Source: an uncultured Verrucomicrobiae bacterium
GTDB lineage: Bacteria; Verrucomicrobiota; Verrucomicrobiia; Limisphaerales; UBA11358
Reading direction: 5' to 3'
NCBI GenBank assembly: GCA_963802515.1
Contig: CAWDIX010000002.1
Span: 1,232,418-1,296,417 of the forward strand
Length of the DNA: 64,000 nucleotides
Shown: positions 24,746-31,830 of the stretch, one piece after another
Position numbering within the stretch: position 1 is the first letter of the stretch
How the letters are laid out: every line of letters starts with the position of its first letter
Position numbers and translations under genes: made by a program
Notes under the pieces: generated by a model
Told to the model about the DNA's origin: nothing
The model's database searches: none
The model's input: only the letters and a program-made list of their open reading frames with translations

Positions 24746-27264
24746 CTATTCCCGCACCGTCGCTTTCAACTGCGATTTGAATGCTTCCACGATTTTCGTG
24801 TGCGCGGCGTTCACTTCGGCGTCAGTCAGCGTTTTGTCCGACGCGCGATAGGTGAAAGCGTAAGCCAGACTCTTCTGTCCTTCCGGCACATTCTTTGCCA
24901 CGAAACACGTCGAACAACTCGACACGTTTCCAGGTTCGCCGGCTTGGCCTGTTTCACCACCTGCAAAACCGCTTCATGCGTCGTGGCTTCGGGCACCATC
25001 ATGGCCACGTCGCGGCGGATCGCCGGGAATTGCGGCAACGGCTTGAACGACTTGGCCGGATTGCGCCGGGCCAGCAGCAAATCCAGATTCAATTCCGCCA
25101 GCAACACCGCGTCGCGCAAATCGTATTTCTTTGCCAGCACCGGCGATAGCTGGCCGAATTCACCGATGGGATTCTTGCCCTGCAAAATCACGGCAGATTC
25201 AAGGAACAATGCCGTGCTTTCAGCCCGGCGGTTGAACGTCATCCCGCGCAAACCGAATTGCTCAAAAAATTCTTCGAGCAACCCTTTCAAATCGTAGGCG
25301 TCAAACTTCGCGTCGCGATCTTCACCGCTCCAGAACAGAGGATGACGCTGACCGGTGATCGCGATGGCCACGCGGCGTTCTTCCTGGTAGGGAGAGCGCC
25401 CTGCACTGTCCCCCGATTTTTGTCGGGACAGCGCGGCGTCCCTACCTTGTGCAAACACCCGTCCGATTTCAAACAAAGCCACGTCGTAATTCTTGTGGCT
25501 GACGTTGTGCCGCAACGAATGAATCAAGCCCGGCAGCAAGCTCGGCCGCAGCACGTCCATGTCTGAACTCAGCGGATTCGCCAAAGCCACCAATTCGGCA
25601 TTCGGCATTCGGCATTCGGCATTCGCGATCAGCGTTTGTCCTTGCGCCTCGTTCAAACCCAAGCCGCTCAAAATTCTTCGCGCTTCGGCAATCTGATCGT
25701 GGACCGCATCAAATGCATTCGTGCCAATCGCGCCGCGCGGCGACGTGGCCGGGATTTTGTCCACGCCGTGCAGGCGTGCGATTTCCTCAATCAAATCCAC
25801 CTCACGCTTCAAATCCACGCGGAAGGTGGGAATTTGAAACGTCACCGGTTCCGGCGGGCCGCCCTCACCCACCGGCCGCGCCTTGCGATTCACAGCCTTC
25901 AAACCGAGTTGGCCGAGATAATATTCGCACTCCTCCGGTTTCAAGGTGATGCCGAGCAATTCGTTGACCTTGTGATGACGCAGCGTCACTTGCTTTGGCT
26001 CAACCGGTTTCGGATAGGCATCCACGACACCTTCGGCCAATTGACCGCCGGCGGTTTCCAGAATCAATTGCGCGCAACGCTGGCTGGCCCAATCGCAAAT
26101 GCCGATGTCCGCGCCGCGCTCGAAGCGGTAGCTCGATTCGCTGCGCAGACCGAGCGCCTTGCTCGTGCGGCGGATGTTCGTCGGCGAGAAATAGGCGCTC
26201 TCGATGAGCACGTCCATCGGTCGTGTCGTTGATTTCCGTGTTCTGGCCGCCCATGACGCCGGCGAGCGCGATGCCTTTTTGTTCGTCGGCAATCAAAAGC
26301 ATTTCGTTCGTGAGCGTGCGTTCGACGTTGTCGAGCGTCTTGAATTTTTCGCCGGCGTTGGCGCGGCGAACGACGATAGTGGCGCGGGCATCTTGCCCGC
26401 CCGACGGGCTGGAAGCCCGTGCCACTAGATGATAATCAAACGCGTGCAGCGGCTGGCCGGTTTCGAGCATCACGTAATTCGTCACGTCCACGACGTTGTT
26501 GATGCTGCGAATGCCGACTTTCTCCAGCATGGTTCGCAGCCAATCCGGGCTTGGCCCGATTTTCACGCCTTTCACGACTCGCGCAGTGTAACGCGGGCAA
26601 AGCTCCGGCGTCTTCGATTCTCACCGAAACCAAATCTTCCGTTCTGACTTCCGACTTCTGACTTCCGACTTCTGGAAGCTTCAGCTTATTCCCGGTCACT
26701 GCCGCGATTTCGCGGGCGATGCCGATGACGCTGTTCCAATCCGGCCGGTTCGGCGTGATTTCCAGATCGTAAACCACGTCGCCGCCGCTGCGACCGAGAT
26801 ATTCGGCGAACGATTTCCCGACCGGCGCATCCGCGGGCAGGATGAGCAGGCCGTCCACCTTGATCCGGCAGGCCGAGTTCCTGCGGCGAACACATCATGC
26901 CGTGGCTGGTGATGCCGAAAACCTTCCGTTCCTTGATGATGAACGGTTCCTTGTCGCCGGGCTTCAGCGGCAGGGCGAAGGTCGGCAGGATGAGCGGCAC
27001 CTTGTCGCCGACCTTGTGATTCTGCGCACCGCAAATGATGACGCGCTCGCCCTTGCCGTCGTTGACCTTGCAGACGGAGAGCTTGTCCGAGCCGGGCACG
27101 GGGTCGCGCGTGAGGATTTGGGCGACGACGATGCCTTCGAACTCGCCGCCGATTTTGTGGACGCTCTCGACTTCGAGGCCGAGCATGGTGAGCCGCTCGG
27201 TCAGTTCTTCCGGCGACCAGTCGAAATCAACGTATTGTTTGAGCCAGTTGAGGGTGACTTTCAT
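24746..27264 (-). CDS. pheT: Phenylalanine-tRNA ligase beta subunit; several frameshifts and in-frame repeat insertions
   Basis: [52 protein letters not shown] and FPAIRRD across ORFs; stop TAG at 24746. Confidence 0.92.
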
Positions 27265-27271
27265 TCTAAAC

Positions 27272-28027
27272 CTAAATTGAATCTATATTCCCACATTTTG
27301 GACACGTTACGGTTCGTCGAGAGCCGGTAATAGAACTATAATATTCTGAATATGGATTACTCGCCATTTTAAAACCAAATCCACATTTGGAGCACTGATG
27401 AGACCTTTCTGATATTGGCAACAAACCACTAATTCCCGGGACAAAACTCCCCGAGGGCACGAGGAATTCGGCCCGAACCGAAGGGCGTTGAATTTGCTCG
27501 GTTACACCTTTTTTGACACGTTCCAAATTTTGTATAGCAGATTCAATTTGTTCTTTTTGCTCTGTTTTAGCCGTCTGTAGTTGCTTTTGCTGTTCTTTAA
27601 TTGACGCATCAATTGTTGTCATAAACGCCTCAAGTTGCGCTGTTTTTTCCTGGATTACTTTATCGAGAATTACACGATATGTGTTTTCAAATTCGCTAAG
27701 AGATTTTTTATAATCCGATCCTTGCCGGTAAATAATAATCCCAGCGACAATAGCTCCCAAGGCGAAGAGCACGCCTAAAGCTCCGACGAAAACACCCAAA
27801 GGGTTCCACCATAAACTTAATTGCGCGTTAGTCTTTTCCAAAATCTCAGCATAATGACGATATAACTCTTCGGTGCTAGCTTGGGAGTTGGTTTGCGTAG
27901 CCCCATTATTCGATGATACCACTATTTTTATTCCGGGCACATTTGTTGTTGTCGAATCAGTTTCAGCATATGCAAGCCACGTGCAACAAACCATAACGAC
28001 TAAAAGAAGTTTATGGGAATAGTTCAT
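27272..28027 (-). CDS. AT-rich hypothetical protein: signal peptide, TM helix, coiled coil, C-terminal zinc ribbon
   Basis: 251-aa ORF with CSKC...CPKC, visibly lower GC than its flanks. Confidence 0.75.
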   Translation of the reverse strand: MNYSHKLLLVVMVCCTWLAYAETDSTTTNVPGIKIVVSSNNGATQTNSQASTEELYRHYAEILEKTNAQLSLWWNPLGVFVGALGVLFALGAIVAGIIIYRQGSDYKKSLSEFENTYRVILDKVIQEKTAQLEAFMTTIDASIKEQQKQLQTAKTEQKEQIESAIQNLERVKKGVTEQIQRPSVRAEFLVPSGSFVPGISGLLPISERSHQCSKCGFGFKMASNPYSEYYSSITGSRRTVTCPKCGNIDSI

Positions 28028-28042
28028 AGCTAACGGTGCCCT

Positions 28043-28987
28043 TCATTTGGAAACTCTTTTCCTTTTACTCGGTTTCGCAACGCGATAGGCAACTGGTCTT
28101 TCATGGAGAACCAAATCCCCATTTTCAGCGGCCGGTGCATGGACACATTCAAAACCAGCAGTGGAAAACAAATTCTGGTTCTCGTCCAGGATCCGACGCG
28201 CGGCCATGAGGCAATAATCAGGATCAATCTCGATTCCAAGGCTGTTACGGCCCCACTTCATCGCGGCGAGCATCGTGGTACCACTGCCGCAGAAGGGATC
28301 GAGTACCGTGTCGCCGTGGAAGGAAAACATCCTTACCAGCCGCATGGCGAGTTCGAGGGGGAAAGGTGCGGGATGCTCCCTGGTCGAAGCGCCGGTGAGT
28401 GTCCAGATTTGGCGGAACCACTCGTTGAACTCGCTTTTGGGAATCATGCTCAAACGCCGCTGCTCCTCTGTCGGTTGGCGATAGCCACCTGGTTTGCGCT
28501 GCATGAGAATAAACTCGATGTCATTTTTGACGATGGCATTTGGCTCGTAAGGTTTGCCGAGAAATTTGCTGCTCGTATTCGCCTCAAAGACGGCATTGGA
28601 AATTTTGTGCCAAATTATTGGATTTAGATTGTCGAAGCCTAGTTTCCGGCAGATGACACAAATATCGGAATGCAACGGCACAACAACGTGCCGGCCATGC
28701 TCGCGGCGCGATAGGCAGACATCGCCCACGACGCAGACCAAGCGTCCACCCGGCACGAGTACGCGGTAGCTCTCCGTCCAAACCTGCTTAAGATCGTCAA
28801 GAAACTCTTCGTAGTCCTGAACATGTCCCAGCTGGCCCGGACTGTCGTTATAGCGTTTTAGCTTCCAGTAGGGTGGCGACGTGGCAACCAGATGCACCGA
28901 TTCGTCTGCGATGTAGGGAAAGCTCCGCGCGTCGCCCTGGTAGAGACGGTGCGTCGTTGGCGTTCCGTTGGTCGCAAAATGTTTCAT
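28043..28987 (-). CDS. Site-specific DNA methyltransferase (N4-C/N6-A, beta motif order)
   Basis: TSPPY precedes HPAPFP and DPFCGSGTT. Confidence 0.92.
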   Translation of the reverse strand: MKHFATNGTPTTHRLYQGDARSFPYIADESVHLVATSPPYWKLKRYNDSPGQLGHVQDYEEFLDDLKQVWTESYRVLVPGGRLVCVVGDVCLSRREHGRHVVVPLHSDICVICRKLGFDNLNPIIWHKISNAVFEANTSSKFLGKPYEPNAIVKNDIEFILMQRKPGGYRQPTEEQRRLSMIPKSEFNEWFRQIWTLTGASTREHPAPFPLELAMRLVRMFSFHGDTVLDPFCGSGTTMLAAMKWGRNSLGIEIDPDYCLMAARRILDENQNLFSTAGFECVHAPAAENGDLVLHERPVAYRVAKPSKRKRVSK

Positions 28988-28990
28988 CGA

Positions 28991-29719
28991 TCAATCGCGA
29001 TAGGCTGCAGCGTGGGCAGCCAGTGATCTGGCGAACTGGAGAAAGGTTAAATCTTCGGCAGGCTCCGCGAAAGCTCCCTTCAAGCCGCCCTTCGGCTCGG
29101 ACAGCAGAAACACCGAGGCGTTGTAATGCCGCTCGCGAACCAGTTTTCGGCAGAACAACTCGTAACGCTTGGCGTAGCTGGCATTGACAAACTCGGGAAA
29201 AACCTTGAAATGCGGCTCTTTTACCTTCACGGGCCGCCGTGATGCCTCGCAATCTTCCAACAGGAACACATAGCCGAGCCACGGGCGAATCGTTTTGTTG
29301 AAAGCACCCTCACGATACGCCGTCCACAAATCCAGCGCGCTGCCCATCGCCTCCTCGGTGCGGTTGTTGAAATTGTTGCCGAACGACGGCCCAACCTGCG
29401 ACTTGGCTTCGAGCACGAGAATAAGCTGACCGTCACGGACGACCAGTAAATCCCATTCCTTAGTCGGGCGGAAGAAGCCAGGCAGTTCAAGCGCTGTGTT
29501 GTGGAAGATGTGCTGACTCTTGATTCCAGATTCCCCAATCAGCCCCGTTATCAGACCGATGAACCCATCCATCTGCGCGCCACCGGTTACCGCGCTGCGT
29601 GCGCCCTGGTCATGCTGGCCGGACGACACCTGTTTGGCAGACTGACTTTGCCGCGTTGACCAGTAGCTGGCAACTGCTTTCGCCACACGACGATTCAGAG
29701 CTGTTTGTTCAAGGTTCAT
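28991..29719 (-). CDS. PaeR7I/XhoI-family type II restriction endonuclease
   Basis: LPGFFRPTKEWDL, EAKSQVGPSFGNNFNNRTEEAMGSALDLWTAYREG. Confidence 0.88.
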   Translation of the reverse strand: MNLEQTALNRRVAKAVASYWSTRQSQSAKQVSSGQHDQGARSAVTGGAQMDGFIGLITGLIGESGIKSQHIFHNTALELPGFFRPTKEWDLLVVRDGQLILVLEAKSQVGPSFGNNFNNRTEEAMGSALDLWTAYREGAFNKTIRPWLGYVFLLEDCEASRRPVKVKEPHFKVFPEFVNASYAKRYELFCRKLVRERHYNASVFLLSEPKGGLKGAFAEPAEDLTFLQFARSLAAHAAAYRD

Positions 29720-29720
29720 T

Positions 29721-30320
29721 CTAGCGTTTGCCGTGATACTCAACTTTGCTTTTATCAATACCAACGTCTTCCCGGATCGTATTGATCAACACGTATGCGC
29801 GCCGCCGCATTTCTTTCCAATCTTCTTGAGGGTTAGTTATTACAGGCTTCTCCAAAATCGAAAAGAGATTATCAATCAGCGAATCGTATGCATCCATTAC
29901 TTGCTGCGGGGCGAGCATTGCTAAATATCCATGGGCTTTGAGGCGACCCCGATTAAAACGATCCACGGCGTCTCCTGCGGGTTTTTGGCCCATACGGATC
30001 ATGCTAATGTCAGCCAAGAAATCTGTGATGACATCGGTGGCAAGTCGGTAAATCGCAAGCTTGTCACTATGTTCCTTCAAGTAAGTTTCACGATAGATTT
30101 CCAAGTTGGTTTGCAGCTCCTTAAGTTTTTCCTGATTGGTTCGTTCAAGCCGTGCTTGAAGTTCGGTTAGTTCCTGATTGTGTTTTGCCCGTTCTTTAAC
30201 CATCAGCCTTTCTGCCCAAACTTTTCCAAGAAAATTTGAAAGCCCCAAAATAATTGCACCACTGCCACCCAACGAAATTATTACAGAGGCGGCGATTTTG
30301 ATTGTTTCAGCAATGTTCAT
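29721..30320 (-). CDS. AT-rich hypothetical protein, N-terminal TM plus helical domain
   Basis: 199-aa ORF with the anchor SVIISLGGSGAIILGLS followed by a coiled coil. Confidence 0.75.
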   Translation of the reverse strand: MNIAETIKIAASVIISLGGSGAIILGLSNFLGKVWAERLMVKERAKHNQELTELQARLERTNQEKLKELQTNLEIYRETYLKEHSDKLAIYRLATDVITDFLADISMIRMGQKPAGDAVDRFNRGRLKAHGYLAMLAPQQVMDAYDSLIDNLFSILEKPVITNPQEDWKEMRRRAYVLINTIREDVGIDKSKVEYHGKR

Positions 30321-30332
30321 TGAAACCTTTCG

Positions 30333-30392
30333 TCAAAACTGTTCAAAAACCGCACGTCGTTTTCGTAAAAAAGGCGGATGTCGTTGATGCCG
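30333..30392 (-). repeat. Direct repeat of the pheS 3' end
   Basis: 60-bp copy of 30742-30802 with three synonymous substitutions and one 1-bp gap. Confidence 0.92.
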
Positions 30393-30395
30393 CCA

Positions 30396-30527
30396 AGCTC
30401 CGCTAGGAGCGGCATCTTTGTAGCCAGCACACCGCCGATCAACCAAGCCCCGTCGGGGCGGCACATTCCGCCAACTAAAATGTTCCTTCCGTCATTGTTC
30501 ATTTTCTATGTCGCTCCTGACGGAGCT
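30396..30527. mobile_element. 132-bp palindromic miniature element
   Basis: AGCTCCGCTAGGAGCGGCAT ... ATGTCGCTCCTGACGGAGCT inverted ends; internal related unit GCCCCGTCGGGGCGGCAC. Confidence 0.7.
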
Positions 30528-30528
30528 T

Positions 30529-30714
30529 TCATCGGCCTTGCGTTTGATGAATCACTTCCCATTTGTCATCCTCGCGCATTTTTTTCAAATCTTCCTGCGT
30601 CATGAAATTCTTGAATTTACCGCGAAGGCGTTCGTTCAATGCCTTTAACCGTTGCAGTCGCTCCGGGCTTTTATCAGCCACCGGACGCTTGATTTGTTTG
30701 GATTTGCTTTTCAT
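30529..30714 (-). CDS. Small basic hypothetical protein (orphan antitoxin-like)
   Basis: 61-aa ORF directly after pheS; the MTQEDLKKMRE end resembles small antitoxin tails. Confidence 0.55.
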   Translation of the reverse strand: MKSKSKQIKRPVADKSPERLQRLKALNERLRGKFKNFMTQEDLKKMREDDKWEVIHQTQGR

Positions 30715-30741
30715 AGCTCACAATATTTTCGCCGTGACGAA

Positions 30742-31830
30742 TTAAAACTGTTTCAAAAACCGCACGTCATTTTCGTAAAAGAGGCGGATGTCGTTGATGC
30801 CGTAGCGAATCATGGCGATGCGTTCGATGCCGAAGCCGAACGCCCAGCCGGTCCAGATTTCCGGGTCGTAACCGACGTTCTCGAACACCTGCGGATGCAC
30901 CATGCCGCAGCCGGCGATTTCCAGCCAGTCCTTGCCCATCTTCTTCACGAGCGCGTTGCTGAAATCAATCTCGAAGCTCGGCTCGGTGTAGCTGAAATAA
31001 TGCGGACGGAACCGGATCTTACGTCGCTCGCCGAGCAGTTCCTTGAAGACAAATTCCACCGTGCCTTTGAGGTCGCCGACGGTGACGTTTTTGTCCACGT
31101 AAAGCCCTTCGATCTGCTGGAAGGTCGGATTGTGCGTGGCGTCGGCGTTGTCGCGGCGATAGACGCGGCCCGGCACGATGATGCGCACGGGCGGCGGCTG
31201 CGATTTCATCACGCGGATTTGGACGGAACTGGTGTGAGTTCGGAGCAAGAAGTGATTTGCCCGCACGGCCCTCACGCGCTGGCGCCTCTCCCGCTCCCGC
31301 GGGCGAGGGAGACGAGCGTCTCCCGGAGCCGGCAAGCATGGCGCGATGCCAAGATAGAACGTGTCCTGGGTATCGCGGGCGGGATGGTCGGCGGGGGTGT
31401 TGAGCGCGTCGAAACAATGGTATTCGTCCTCGATCTCCGGGCCGTCGGCGACGACGAAACCGATTTTGCGAAAGCTGCGGACGATGTCCTCGGTCACCTG
31501 CGTGAGCGGATGGAGCTTGCCGAGGGCACGGCGGCGTCCGGGCAGGGTGAAATCGGTCGGCTCCTTGGGCAGCGCGGCCGCCAGTTCGAGTTCGGCGCGG
31601 CGTTCGGCGAGTGCGGCTTCGAGTTCGATCTTGGCGGCGTTGATGAGCTTGCCGGCGGCGGGTTTTTCCTCCTTCGACAGCGTGCCGAGCTGTTTCATCA
31701 GCGCGGTGAACTTGCCGTGCGGCGCCAGTCCAGCGCCCTTGGTCTGTTCAAGCGCGGCGAGGTCGGGAGCGGCTTTCAAGTCCGCGAGCGCGGCTTGCTT
31801 GAACGGTTCAATGTCGTTCAGCAAAGACAT
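30742..31830 (-). CDS. pheS: Phenylalanine-tRNA ligase alpha subunit with in-frame palindromic insertion
   Basis: HPARDTQDTFY, LRTHTS, DATHNPTFQQIEG, YTEPSFE and GFGIER. Confidence 0.95.
   Translation of the reverse strand: MSLLNDIEPFKQAALADLKAAPDLAALEQTKGAGLAPHGKFTALMKQLGTLSKEEKPAAGKLINAAKIELEAALAERRAELELAAALPKEPTDFTLPGRRRALGKLHPLTQVTEDIVRSFRKIGFVVADGPEIEDEYHCFDALNTPADHPARDTQDTFYLGIAPCLPAPGDARLPRPRERERRQRVRAVRANHFLLRTHTSSVQIRVMKSQPPPVRIIVPGRVYRRDNADATHNPTFQQIEGLYVDKNVTVGDLKGTVEFVFKELLGERRKIRFRPHYFSYTEPSFEIDFSNALVKKMGKDWLEIAGCGMVHPQVFENVGYDPEIWTGWAFGFGIERIAMIRYGINDIRLFYENDVRFLKQF

Follow-up and report, generated by a model that had tools for sequence, protein, structure and literature searches.

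What does it mean when the end of a housekeeping gene is found twice, with another gene lodged between the two copies? The stretch of DNA analyzed here, a 64,000-nucleotide (nt) piece of an uncultured Verrucomicrobiae genome that we refer to as the window, contains an intact pheS gene (30742..31830, minus strand), which encodes the 362-amino-acid (aa) alpha chain of phenylalanyl-tRNA synthetase (Pfam tRNA-synt_2d, E = 7.5e-96, together with Phe_tRNA-synt_N) and has rplT as its upstream neighbor. The functional last 61 nt of this gene (copy 1; 30742..30802, minus strand, stop codon TAA) recur 410 nt downstream as a 60-nt sequence that ends in a TGA "stop" (copy 2; 30333..30392, minus strand). 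A repeat search of the window reported the pair as a direct repeat of 51 nt at 96% identity with the same 410-nt spacing, and a 29-mer from it matched the window twice at up to three mismatches, compared to no match in 100 shuffled sequences. The two copies differ by CTC/CTT, AAT/AAC, and TAA/TGA, plus one A that is missing from a GAAAC in copy 2. All three substitutions are silent, and repeat search and alignment thus agree with the first-pass annotation of this sequence, which had described a pheS end recurring about 410 bp downstream with silent changes. Between the copies lie, in order, a 27-nt spacer, a small open reading frame (ORF) of 61 aa (ORF61; 30529..30714, minus strand), and an inverted-repeat (IR) element at about 30395..30527. 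The IR does abut copy 2, as first reported, with its length corrected from 132 bp to 133 nt and its distance from the copy from 3 bp to 2 nt.

We favor, with a little more confidence than doubt, the reading that copy 2 is the former terminus of pheS, displaced by a 410-nt unit that recombined into the conserved end of the gene in a recombinase-free process of cassette accretion. The unit would begin at position -61 of pheS, finish where the IR ends, and consist of a substitute 61-nt pheS end, the spacer, an orphan antitoxin-like 61-aa gene, and the IR repeat. Its incoming end would complete pheS, and the resident end would be pushed downstream as a noncoding relic, so that integration inside the gene end would yield the order gene, new end, cargo, old end. 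More broadly, units composed of the last 40 to 220 nt of a housekeeping gene and tightly following cargo ORFs would spread between lineages after DNA uptake, enter by homologous pairing in the gene end, and, through repeated rounds, stack cassettes behind the stop codon.

The cargo of the proposed unit is a conserved protein. ORF61 itself matched no Pfam family, and its residues 19 to 54 match the C-terminal half of a 74-aa VapB_antitoxin protein (22 of 36 residues identical, E = 4e-14). It belongs to a family of 37 homologous clusters, mostly 61 aa long and 53 to 100% identical, and two distant homologues bear PF04014 or PF09957. ORF61 therefore resembles the C-terminal half of VapB/MazE-type antitoxins, its toxin partner is absent from the locus, and judging from this likeness it may be an orphan antitoxin.

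Is the arrangement real? The assembly (three contigs, estimated completeness of 78%) does contain errors. The downstream gene pheT (24749..27264, minus strand), located by tblastn with the 820-aa PheT of a relative and by Pfam pieces, is broken into five frame segments and carries at least four frameshifts relative to that protein. Such splitting of an essential gene is probably caused by assembly indel errors, and the homopolymer gap of 1 nt in copy 2 is for that reason uninterpretable. Even so, an assembly artifact or a strain chimera formed at the short repeat is an exceedingly improbable source of the doubled end. The order pheS, ORF61, IR, relic is collinear in an independent metagenome-assembled genome (MAG) (L029/L067; 83.9% identity over 1,606 nt), and the IR-relic junction is present in eight genomes, long contigs among them, and is bridged by contigs of relatives from two other metagenomes. 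The strain was not found in public sequencing runs (best share of words, 0.20).

Doubled pheS ends are frequent among relatives. When the terminal 120 nt of pheS served as the query, 111 of 121 genomes of the genus gave a match, and 28 of these 111 contained two to four copies, including two genomes (G054 and G072) in which the second match is no terminal relic. At the level of named MAG loci, 19 of 80 had at least two pheS ends, for a total of 25 relics. The first-pass reading expected junctions of this kind in related genomes, and they proved to be numerous. The closest loci come from soil, peat, and wetland MAGs of the Verrucomicrobiota, labeled mostly Verrucomicrobiia or Verrucomicrobiae, Limisphaerales, Pedosphaera, or "subdivision 3," with a few others. 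In an order-wide sample (151 genomes, 107 genera), at least two pheS end matches were found in 8 of 146 matching genomes, and among these no fewer than two genomes, G232 with two relics and G209 with one, belong to other genera. Most relatives have a single pheS end, and five loci (L125, L079, L072, L114, and L130) represent empty sites, in which pheS and pheT are separated by 3 to 60 nt. Across relatives the pheS-pheT interval ranges from 3 to more than 3,000 nt, and its cargo includes carbonic anhydrase, restriction-modification (R-M) genes, Mrr, Abi_alpha, toxin-antitoxin (TA) pairs, PAP2, and others. A conserved gene pair with different whole-gene cassettes between its members, genome by genome, is the arrangement of a minimal mobile element (MME). 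The 5' start of pheT is duplicated as well, in 5 of the first 24 loci; being symmetric with the duplicated pheS ends, these starts fit anchoring in either flank. They were seen in L025 (3351-3406), L026, L033, L038, and L042, and the L025 relic is 98% identical to the pheT start of the window, compared to 93% for L025's own pheT start.

Behind pheS, relatives carry tandem arrays of up to three small cassettes, mostly TA pairs, each of which begins 1 to 50 nt downstream of a stop codon and has a partial pheS end behind it. Pfam searches identified cassettes encoding VapB_antitoxin with PIN (E = 4e-10 and 4.5e-11), MazE with PIN, a DUF6036/AbiEii-like nucleotidyltransferase with a small partner, a PIN-like 160-aa protein with a small partner, ORF6N, and a beta-carbonic anhydrase; a HicA/HicB-like pair and a 361-aa DNA methyltransferase-like ORF were named by eye only. 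The junctions travel with their cassettes. All eight VapB/PIN cassettes seen are preceded by a ...TTTTAG end joined to GATTC, whether they stand first or third in the array, and the relic boundary of MazE/PIN stays near position 47 of the 120-nt query in two arrays that differ in order. The stop codon closes the repeat, and its type is linked to the cassette downstream of it. Both junctions, the one between stop codon and cargo start and the one between cargo end and relic start, thus belong to the cassette, which makes the moving unit a circular permutation of gene end plus cargo. Relic boundaries can drift: the same VapB/PIN cassette has a relic that starts at position 30 in one genome and at position 60 in another (L073 versus L033), a shift that corresponds to a deletion between two CGGCATC repeats. 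In L046 (genome G115; cassette 1, 640-660), a nucleotidyltransferase cassette begins 3 nt after a VapC stop codon with no pheS relic in between, so cassettes can also adjoin one another directly.

Other genes of the source genome bear the same scar. The end of ilvD is repeated over 219 nt (stop codons TAA/TGA) and that of pyrG over 104 nt, with AbiEii-like cargo; a beta-CASP/RMMBL RNase gene has a 65-nt repeat (stop codons TAA/TGA) that encloses a ParE pair and an IR, and an aldo-keto reductase gene has a 120-nt repeat with a glycoside hydrolase of 868 aa encoded on the other strand. The architecture is seen at two further genes as well. In four cases (pheS, ilvD, pyrG, and the beta-CASP gene), the last nucleotide of the repeat is that of the stop codon. 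A strict screen of the whole genome, which looked for repeats whose ends coincide with aligned stop codons, served only as a source of candidates and found few loci because frameshift errors break ORFs; one candidate (4093991/4095201) was rejected as a pair of paralogous prepilin N termini. Within the genus, about 15 of 47 matching genomes have a duplicated ilvD end, with arrays in at least four, and pyrG ends are duplicated essentially in the source genome only. The unpublished genome G070 contributes to nothing but the genus totals for pheS, ilvD, and pyrG. Arrays of repeated 5' starts or upstream sequence also precede a rhodanese gene and another gene. At the locus L057 (1459-3595; G000 C2:3228458-3230594), a ~55-nt sequence terminating with the start codon of a 406-aa gene is present in four copies, which delimit a PIN-like pair, a DUF6883+DUF4926 pair, and an IR element.

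How gene end and relic differ speaks to their origin. Over seven loci, the substitutions between them fall 13/13/35 on codon positions 1, 2, and 3 (35 of 61 at the third position; binomial P of about 1e-4), and of the differing codons 31 are synonymous and 21 nonsynonymous. This third-position excess indicates that gene end and relic diverged largely while both were coding, and such divergence is as expected if the relic were the host's old end and the new end had come from another lineage. Together with the three of three silent substitutions at pheS, it supports the first-pass claim that both copies were once functional pheS ends in different lineages. Several distal relics have since decayed. 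At pheS, copy 1 agrees at all three variable sites with L027, the closest of the relatives in which ORF61 likewise follows pheS; a phylogenetic decision between native and incoming end would need more than three sites.

What role does the IR play? By repeat and fold analysis, the element is one of a low-copy dispersed family, with about eight members in the source genome, that combines conserved 21-nt arms, each a small 5-bp hairpin, with a variable center. At pheS the arms read AAGCTCCGYYAGGAGCGRCAT, and the DNA fold of the element has an energy of -27.9 kcal/mol (z = -2.27). Its terminal inverted repeats and dispersed copies are those of a miniature inverted-repeat transposable element (MITE) or repetitive extragenic palindromic (REP) element. 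The only Rfam match, to DicF, was sub-threshold (17.6 bits against a cutoff of 48) and was rejected. The first-pass annotation had seen in the element the sign of a palindrome-associated capture route; in a fuller form of this idea, an element of the MITE or REP kind, mobilized by a transposase (HUH or another), would itself capture adjacent gene ends and ORFs. Some observations lean this way, since four of the roughly eight IR copies in the genome lie in or beside repeat arrays (pheS, e3156, e3230, and e1523), and the IR-relic junction is kept in its eight genomes, always at the last relic, despite differing cargo upstream of the IR, as if the hairpin might attract illegitimate joints. The wider distribution of the element nevertheless makes an active role very unlikely. 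Among the 80 loci of relatives, only 6 of 25 relics abut an IR, the IR is present in 17 loci of which 8 have no relic at all, and most cassettes (TA pairs) lack it. No target-site duplication is evident at the IR ends. Of 12 Y1_Tnp matches in the source genome, 10 were checked and none had a hairpin motif within 1.5 kb, so that the HUH enzyme suspected at first was not found near any IR copy, and an HUH or REP-associated tyrosine transposase (RAYT) was rejected as the driver of IR-linked capture. Because few relics abut an IR and many IR loci have no relic, the scar neither requires the element nor follows from its presence, and the element may at most be a favored site for illegitimate joints.

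The intervals themselves offer no enzyme in its place. Among 80 scanned ORFs from the pheS-pheT intervals of relatives (out of 203 ORFs of 70 aa or more; loci L067-L129), none belonged to an integrase or transposase family, and the two families tested in the window, PF00589 and PF01797, had no match there. This agrees with the original proposal that a small unit of gene end, 61-aa ORF, and IR had replaced the terminus with no integrase nearby. The nearest PF00589 match lies about 31 kb before the start of the window. Given that no recombinase was found in the intervals examined, we favor recombination anchored in the conserved gene end. The repeats range in length from 38 to 219 nt and have no motif common to the target genes (a GAAAC-like junction motif at pheS, none in common at other genes), which homology-anchored recombination fits better than an att-style process. 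Entry could proceed by a single crossover of a circularized unit or by one homologous anchor combined with an illegitimate joint, similar to homology-facilitated illegitimate recombination (HFIR), and spread between lineages would resemble that of MMEs. We infer this recombination pathway, as well as the route of DNA transfer and the first fusion of a cassette to a new gene end; what the sequences show directly is the anatomy, the arrays, the linkage of cassettes to their two boundaries, the third-position excess, and the lack of recombinase genes in the intervals examined. ComEC and DprA homologues are present and lend weak support, as most control genomes have both.

Several observations weigh against this reading. 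Half of the partial pheS copies (19 of 38) start at positions 45 to 49 of the query, this clustering spans at least six unrelated cassette types, and an A-rich, GAAAC-like motif often precedes the left ends of relics at pheS; a defined cutting or crossover site would explain such clustered ends better than random joints. One cassette family, moreover, stands behind two target genes: the nucleotidyltransferase cassette that follows ilvD in the source genome and the one that follows pheS in another genome share 77% nucleotide identity over 719 nt, with homology limited to the two ORFs, beginning at the first start codon and stopping close to the final stop codon. Since homology to a gene end cannot carry a cassette from one gene to another, some other mechanism is required for the founding events at least. 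In some relic pairs (those of the g425450 locus and the aldo-keto reductase gene), most of the change is nonsynonymous. Relics clearly decay with distance from pheS in just two arrays (L030 and L031) and do not in about five, and a general age gradient along arrays was therefore discarded. Identity at synonymous sites rises only mildly at the pheS end (0.80 versus about 0.70), and homogenization of the end was dropped as support. Relic lengths cluster near 72 to 80 nt at pheS (19 of 38) and more weakly near 79 to 82 nt at ilvD (5 of 17).

The clustered relic starts and the cassette family found behind two genes leave room for an enzyme acting in trans or for templated insertion. In the first case, the cassettes would be integrase-less satellites, comparable to integron cassettes or cis-mobilizable elements, that bring a substitute gene end and are mobilized site specifically by a recombinase encoded elsewhere, with an att core in the 3' ends of pheS and ilvD. 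Several observations favor this case. The left bounds of relics cluster, in at least six unrelated cassette types, at about -76 to -80 nt relative to the pheS stop codon, arrays grow next to the gene as integron arrays do at attI, pheS and ilvD are hot spots (pyrG being duplicated in the source genome only), and the genome has 17 tyrosine-recombinase matches elsewhere. We nevertheless consider site-specific recombination in trans unlikely, if worth keeping in mind. No recombinase gene lies beside any array examined or in the window, at least six target genes in one genome show no evident common junction motif, and repeat length varies from 38 to 219 nt. Boundaries also occur outside the cluster (at positions 30, 53 to 61, 72, 83, and 91), at least one of them by the deletion that separates L073 from L033, and the 5' starts of pheT and of the rhodanese gene are duplicated too. 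A stronger version of the idea, in which an integron-like but integrase-free system sets ORF-only cassettes (TA pairs, nucleotidyltransferase pairs, ORF6N) a few nucleotides behind the stop codons of conserved genes such as pheS and ilvD and in doing so duplicates the gene end, at pheS most often over about 76 to 80 nt, strikes us as doubtful; were it true, the movement of one cassette between genes would imply dedicated trans-acting machinery, beyond occasional homologous or illegitimate recombination.

Templated or end-joined insertion would dispense with homology altogether. Each cassette would then be a fresh illegitimate insertion that leaves a long stretch of its target duplicated, made by template switching or by end joining at staggered breaks, and the repeat would be a by-product. 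This would account for variable repeat lengths and for a cassette family that occurs behind different genes with homology confined to its ORFs; three of nine further cassette homologues in the genome are flanked by local repeats of their own, and insertions of this kind, for R-M genes without mobility genes, are on record in PMC2853133. Three features make it rather improbable here. Random staggered breaks would not produce the exact coincidence of repeat end and stop codon that is seen at pheS, ilvD, pyrG, and the beta-CASP gene. The copies of an in-place duplication would be identical at first and decay at random, contrary to the observed preference for third positions. The stop codon type, finally, goes with the downstream cassette.

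Between the relic and pheT, the window contains a further block of genes. It falls within a low-GC stretch from about 27,270 to 30,740 (GC of 0.42 to 0.57 versus about 0.60 in the flanks), and all four of its ORFs are on the minus strand. The first is a 199-aa ORF without a Pfam family (29721..30320) that starts 12 nt after the relic stop. It is followed by an XhoI-type type II restriction endonuclease (28991..29764; Pfam XhoI, E = 4.8e-90; PADLOC REase_II, E = 1.4e-91), its partner N6/N4 DNA methyltransferase (28043..28987; Pfam N6_N4_Mtase, E = 3.5e-41; PADLOC MTase_II), and a 251-aa ORF of 42% GC (27272..28027) that ends 8 nt before the pheT start. This last ORF had weak hits below cutoffs, namely, PADLOC LeoBC (E = 2.5e-6) and zinc-ribbon models, and may belong to the defense island. 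Neither the 199-aa ORF nor the island had a match in any fetched relative, and no further pheS end or pheT start lies inside the island, which went into this hot spot as a distinct, unflanked insertion. A wetland metagenome contig (X1; 44-nt side, minimum likeness 85) joins the start region of the endonuclease gene (29695) to the pheS stop (30740), omitting 1,044 nt; R-M genes may thus lie directly behind pheS in some relative.

Two smaller features touch pheS itself. Another 61-aa ORF (30317..30502, minus strand) starts inside the IR, crosses the relic in the pheS frame, and ends with the C-terminal residues of PheS; it is possibly no real gene. ORFs of 56 to 70 aa are laid out in the same way in six relatives (L029, L032, L037, L044, L045, and L021), the one in L021 ending early. 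Within PheS, residues of about 151 to 200 (window positions of about 31230 to 31380) are hypervariable, with an amino-acid identity of about 0.26 among 36 relatives compared to more than 0.9 on either side, and the source genome has a GC-rich in-frame insertion in this part.

How do these scars relate to known systems? Insertion with long target duplication was reportedly described by Nobusato et al. in 2000, and minimal mobile elements are said to go back to Saunders and Snyder in 2002 and Snyder et al. in 2007. The scars share with the former an empty site, a 61/60-nt repeat, and an insert without integrase or transposase. In the account of such insertions given in the consulted part of PMC2853133, direct repeats of more than 30 bp flank the insert and are single copy in the empty site, no mobility gene is present, repeat length varies, and some repeats overlap the 3' end of a gene. 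The cases presented in that part are R-M systems in single insertions, whereas here the cargo, mostly TA pairs and small ORFs, forms tandem arrays; also unlike those cases, the repeats here run exactly to a stop codon, and silent sites account for most of their differences. Furuta et al. 2010 (PMC2853133) used the presence of R and M genes in the insert as a criterion, whereas the repeat-flanked insert at pheS consists of ORF61 and the IR. The XhoI-type R-M pair lies outside the pheS repeat.

The likeness to MMEs extends to the locus. In Neisseria, the excerpted text of PMC3082526 names pheS/pheT as an MME site with a type II R-M system, reports no mobility genes, and gives homologous recombination in the flanks as the proposed mechanism. 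The very same flanking pair and exchangeable whole-gene cassettes, R-M genes included, are found here, in a different phylum; MMEs as defined in those excerpts involve neither duplicated gene ends nor tandem accretion. A third parallel comes from the effector-immunity arrays of the Vibrio cholerae type VI secretion system (T6SS) and from Rhs C-terminal displacement, for which HFIR has been proposed and an integrase is not involved, according to the relevant section of Kirchberger et al. 2017 (PMC5361080). There, as here, a module anchors in a conserved upstream part, the old 3' end is shifted downstream, and orphaned pieces accumulate. The displaced ends in that section are variable toxin domains with their immunity genes, whereas those described here are the function-less copies of a conserved housekeeping terminus, with unrelated cargo.

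Integrons, and clusters of attC sites lacking integron integrases (CALIN), likewise hold tandem, small, mostly promoterless, TA-rich cassettes that are bounded by repeats and apparently enter at the proximal end. Unlike in integrons, no IntI was found (in the window and the 80 interval ORFs), the repeat is a gene end, and several loci per genome are involved. The core sites of attC, R'' and R', follow the pattern RYYYAAC...GTTRRRY, which the IR arms AAGCTCCG...CGGAGCTT do not fit. The element e14 and phage 21, which integrate at icd, carry a substitute gene end. A substitute end and a repeat that runs to the gene end are present here as well, and an integrase-less element of that type would be a cis-mobilizable element (CIME); for such a core, no integrase is nearby, and 19 of 38 boundaries lie at positions 45 to 49 with the remainder scattered. 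The type of scar is thus already known for R-M genes, as the consulted part of PMC2853133 attests. What is unusual here is that TA cassettes form tandem arrays, that several genes per genome are targeted, and that cassettes are shared between targets. Searches at the title and abstract level found no literature on TA cassette arrays bounded by the ends of housekeeping genes, although such literature may exist.

Apart from a few competent pathogens, there is little documentation of gene gain that proceeds without any enzyme of a mobile element. An uncultured soil lineage here shows such gain at scale, at several loci per genome and in many species, with addiction and defense cassettes set in tandem and anchored to the ends of essential genes. 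The repeated gene ends form a natural record of successive acquisitions, in which differences at silent sites mark transfer between lineages, and the relics provide a simple marker for recombinase-free integration hot spots and for their defense and TA cargo in metagenome-assembled genomes. Should a defined crossover site or a length rule prove true, these arrays would represent a new route of cassette capture comparable to that of integrons.

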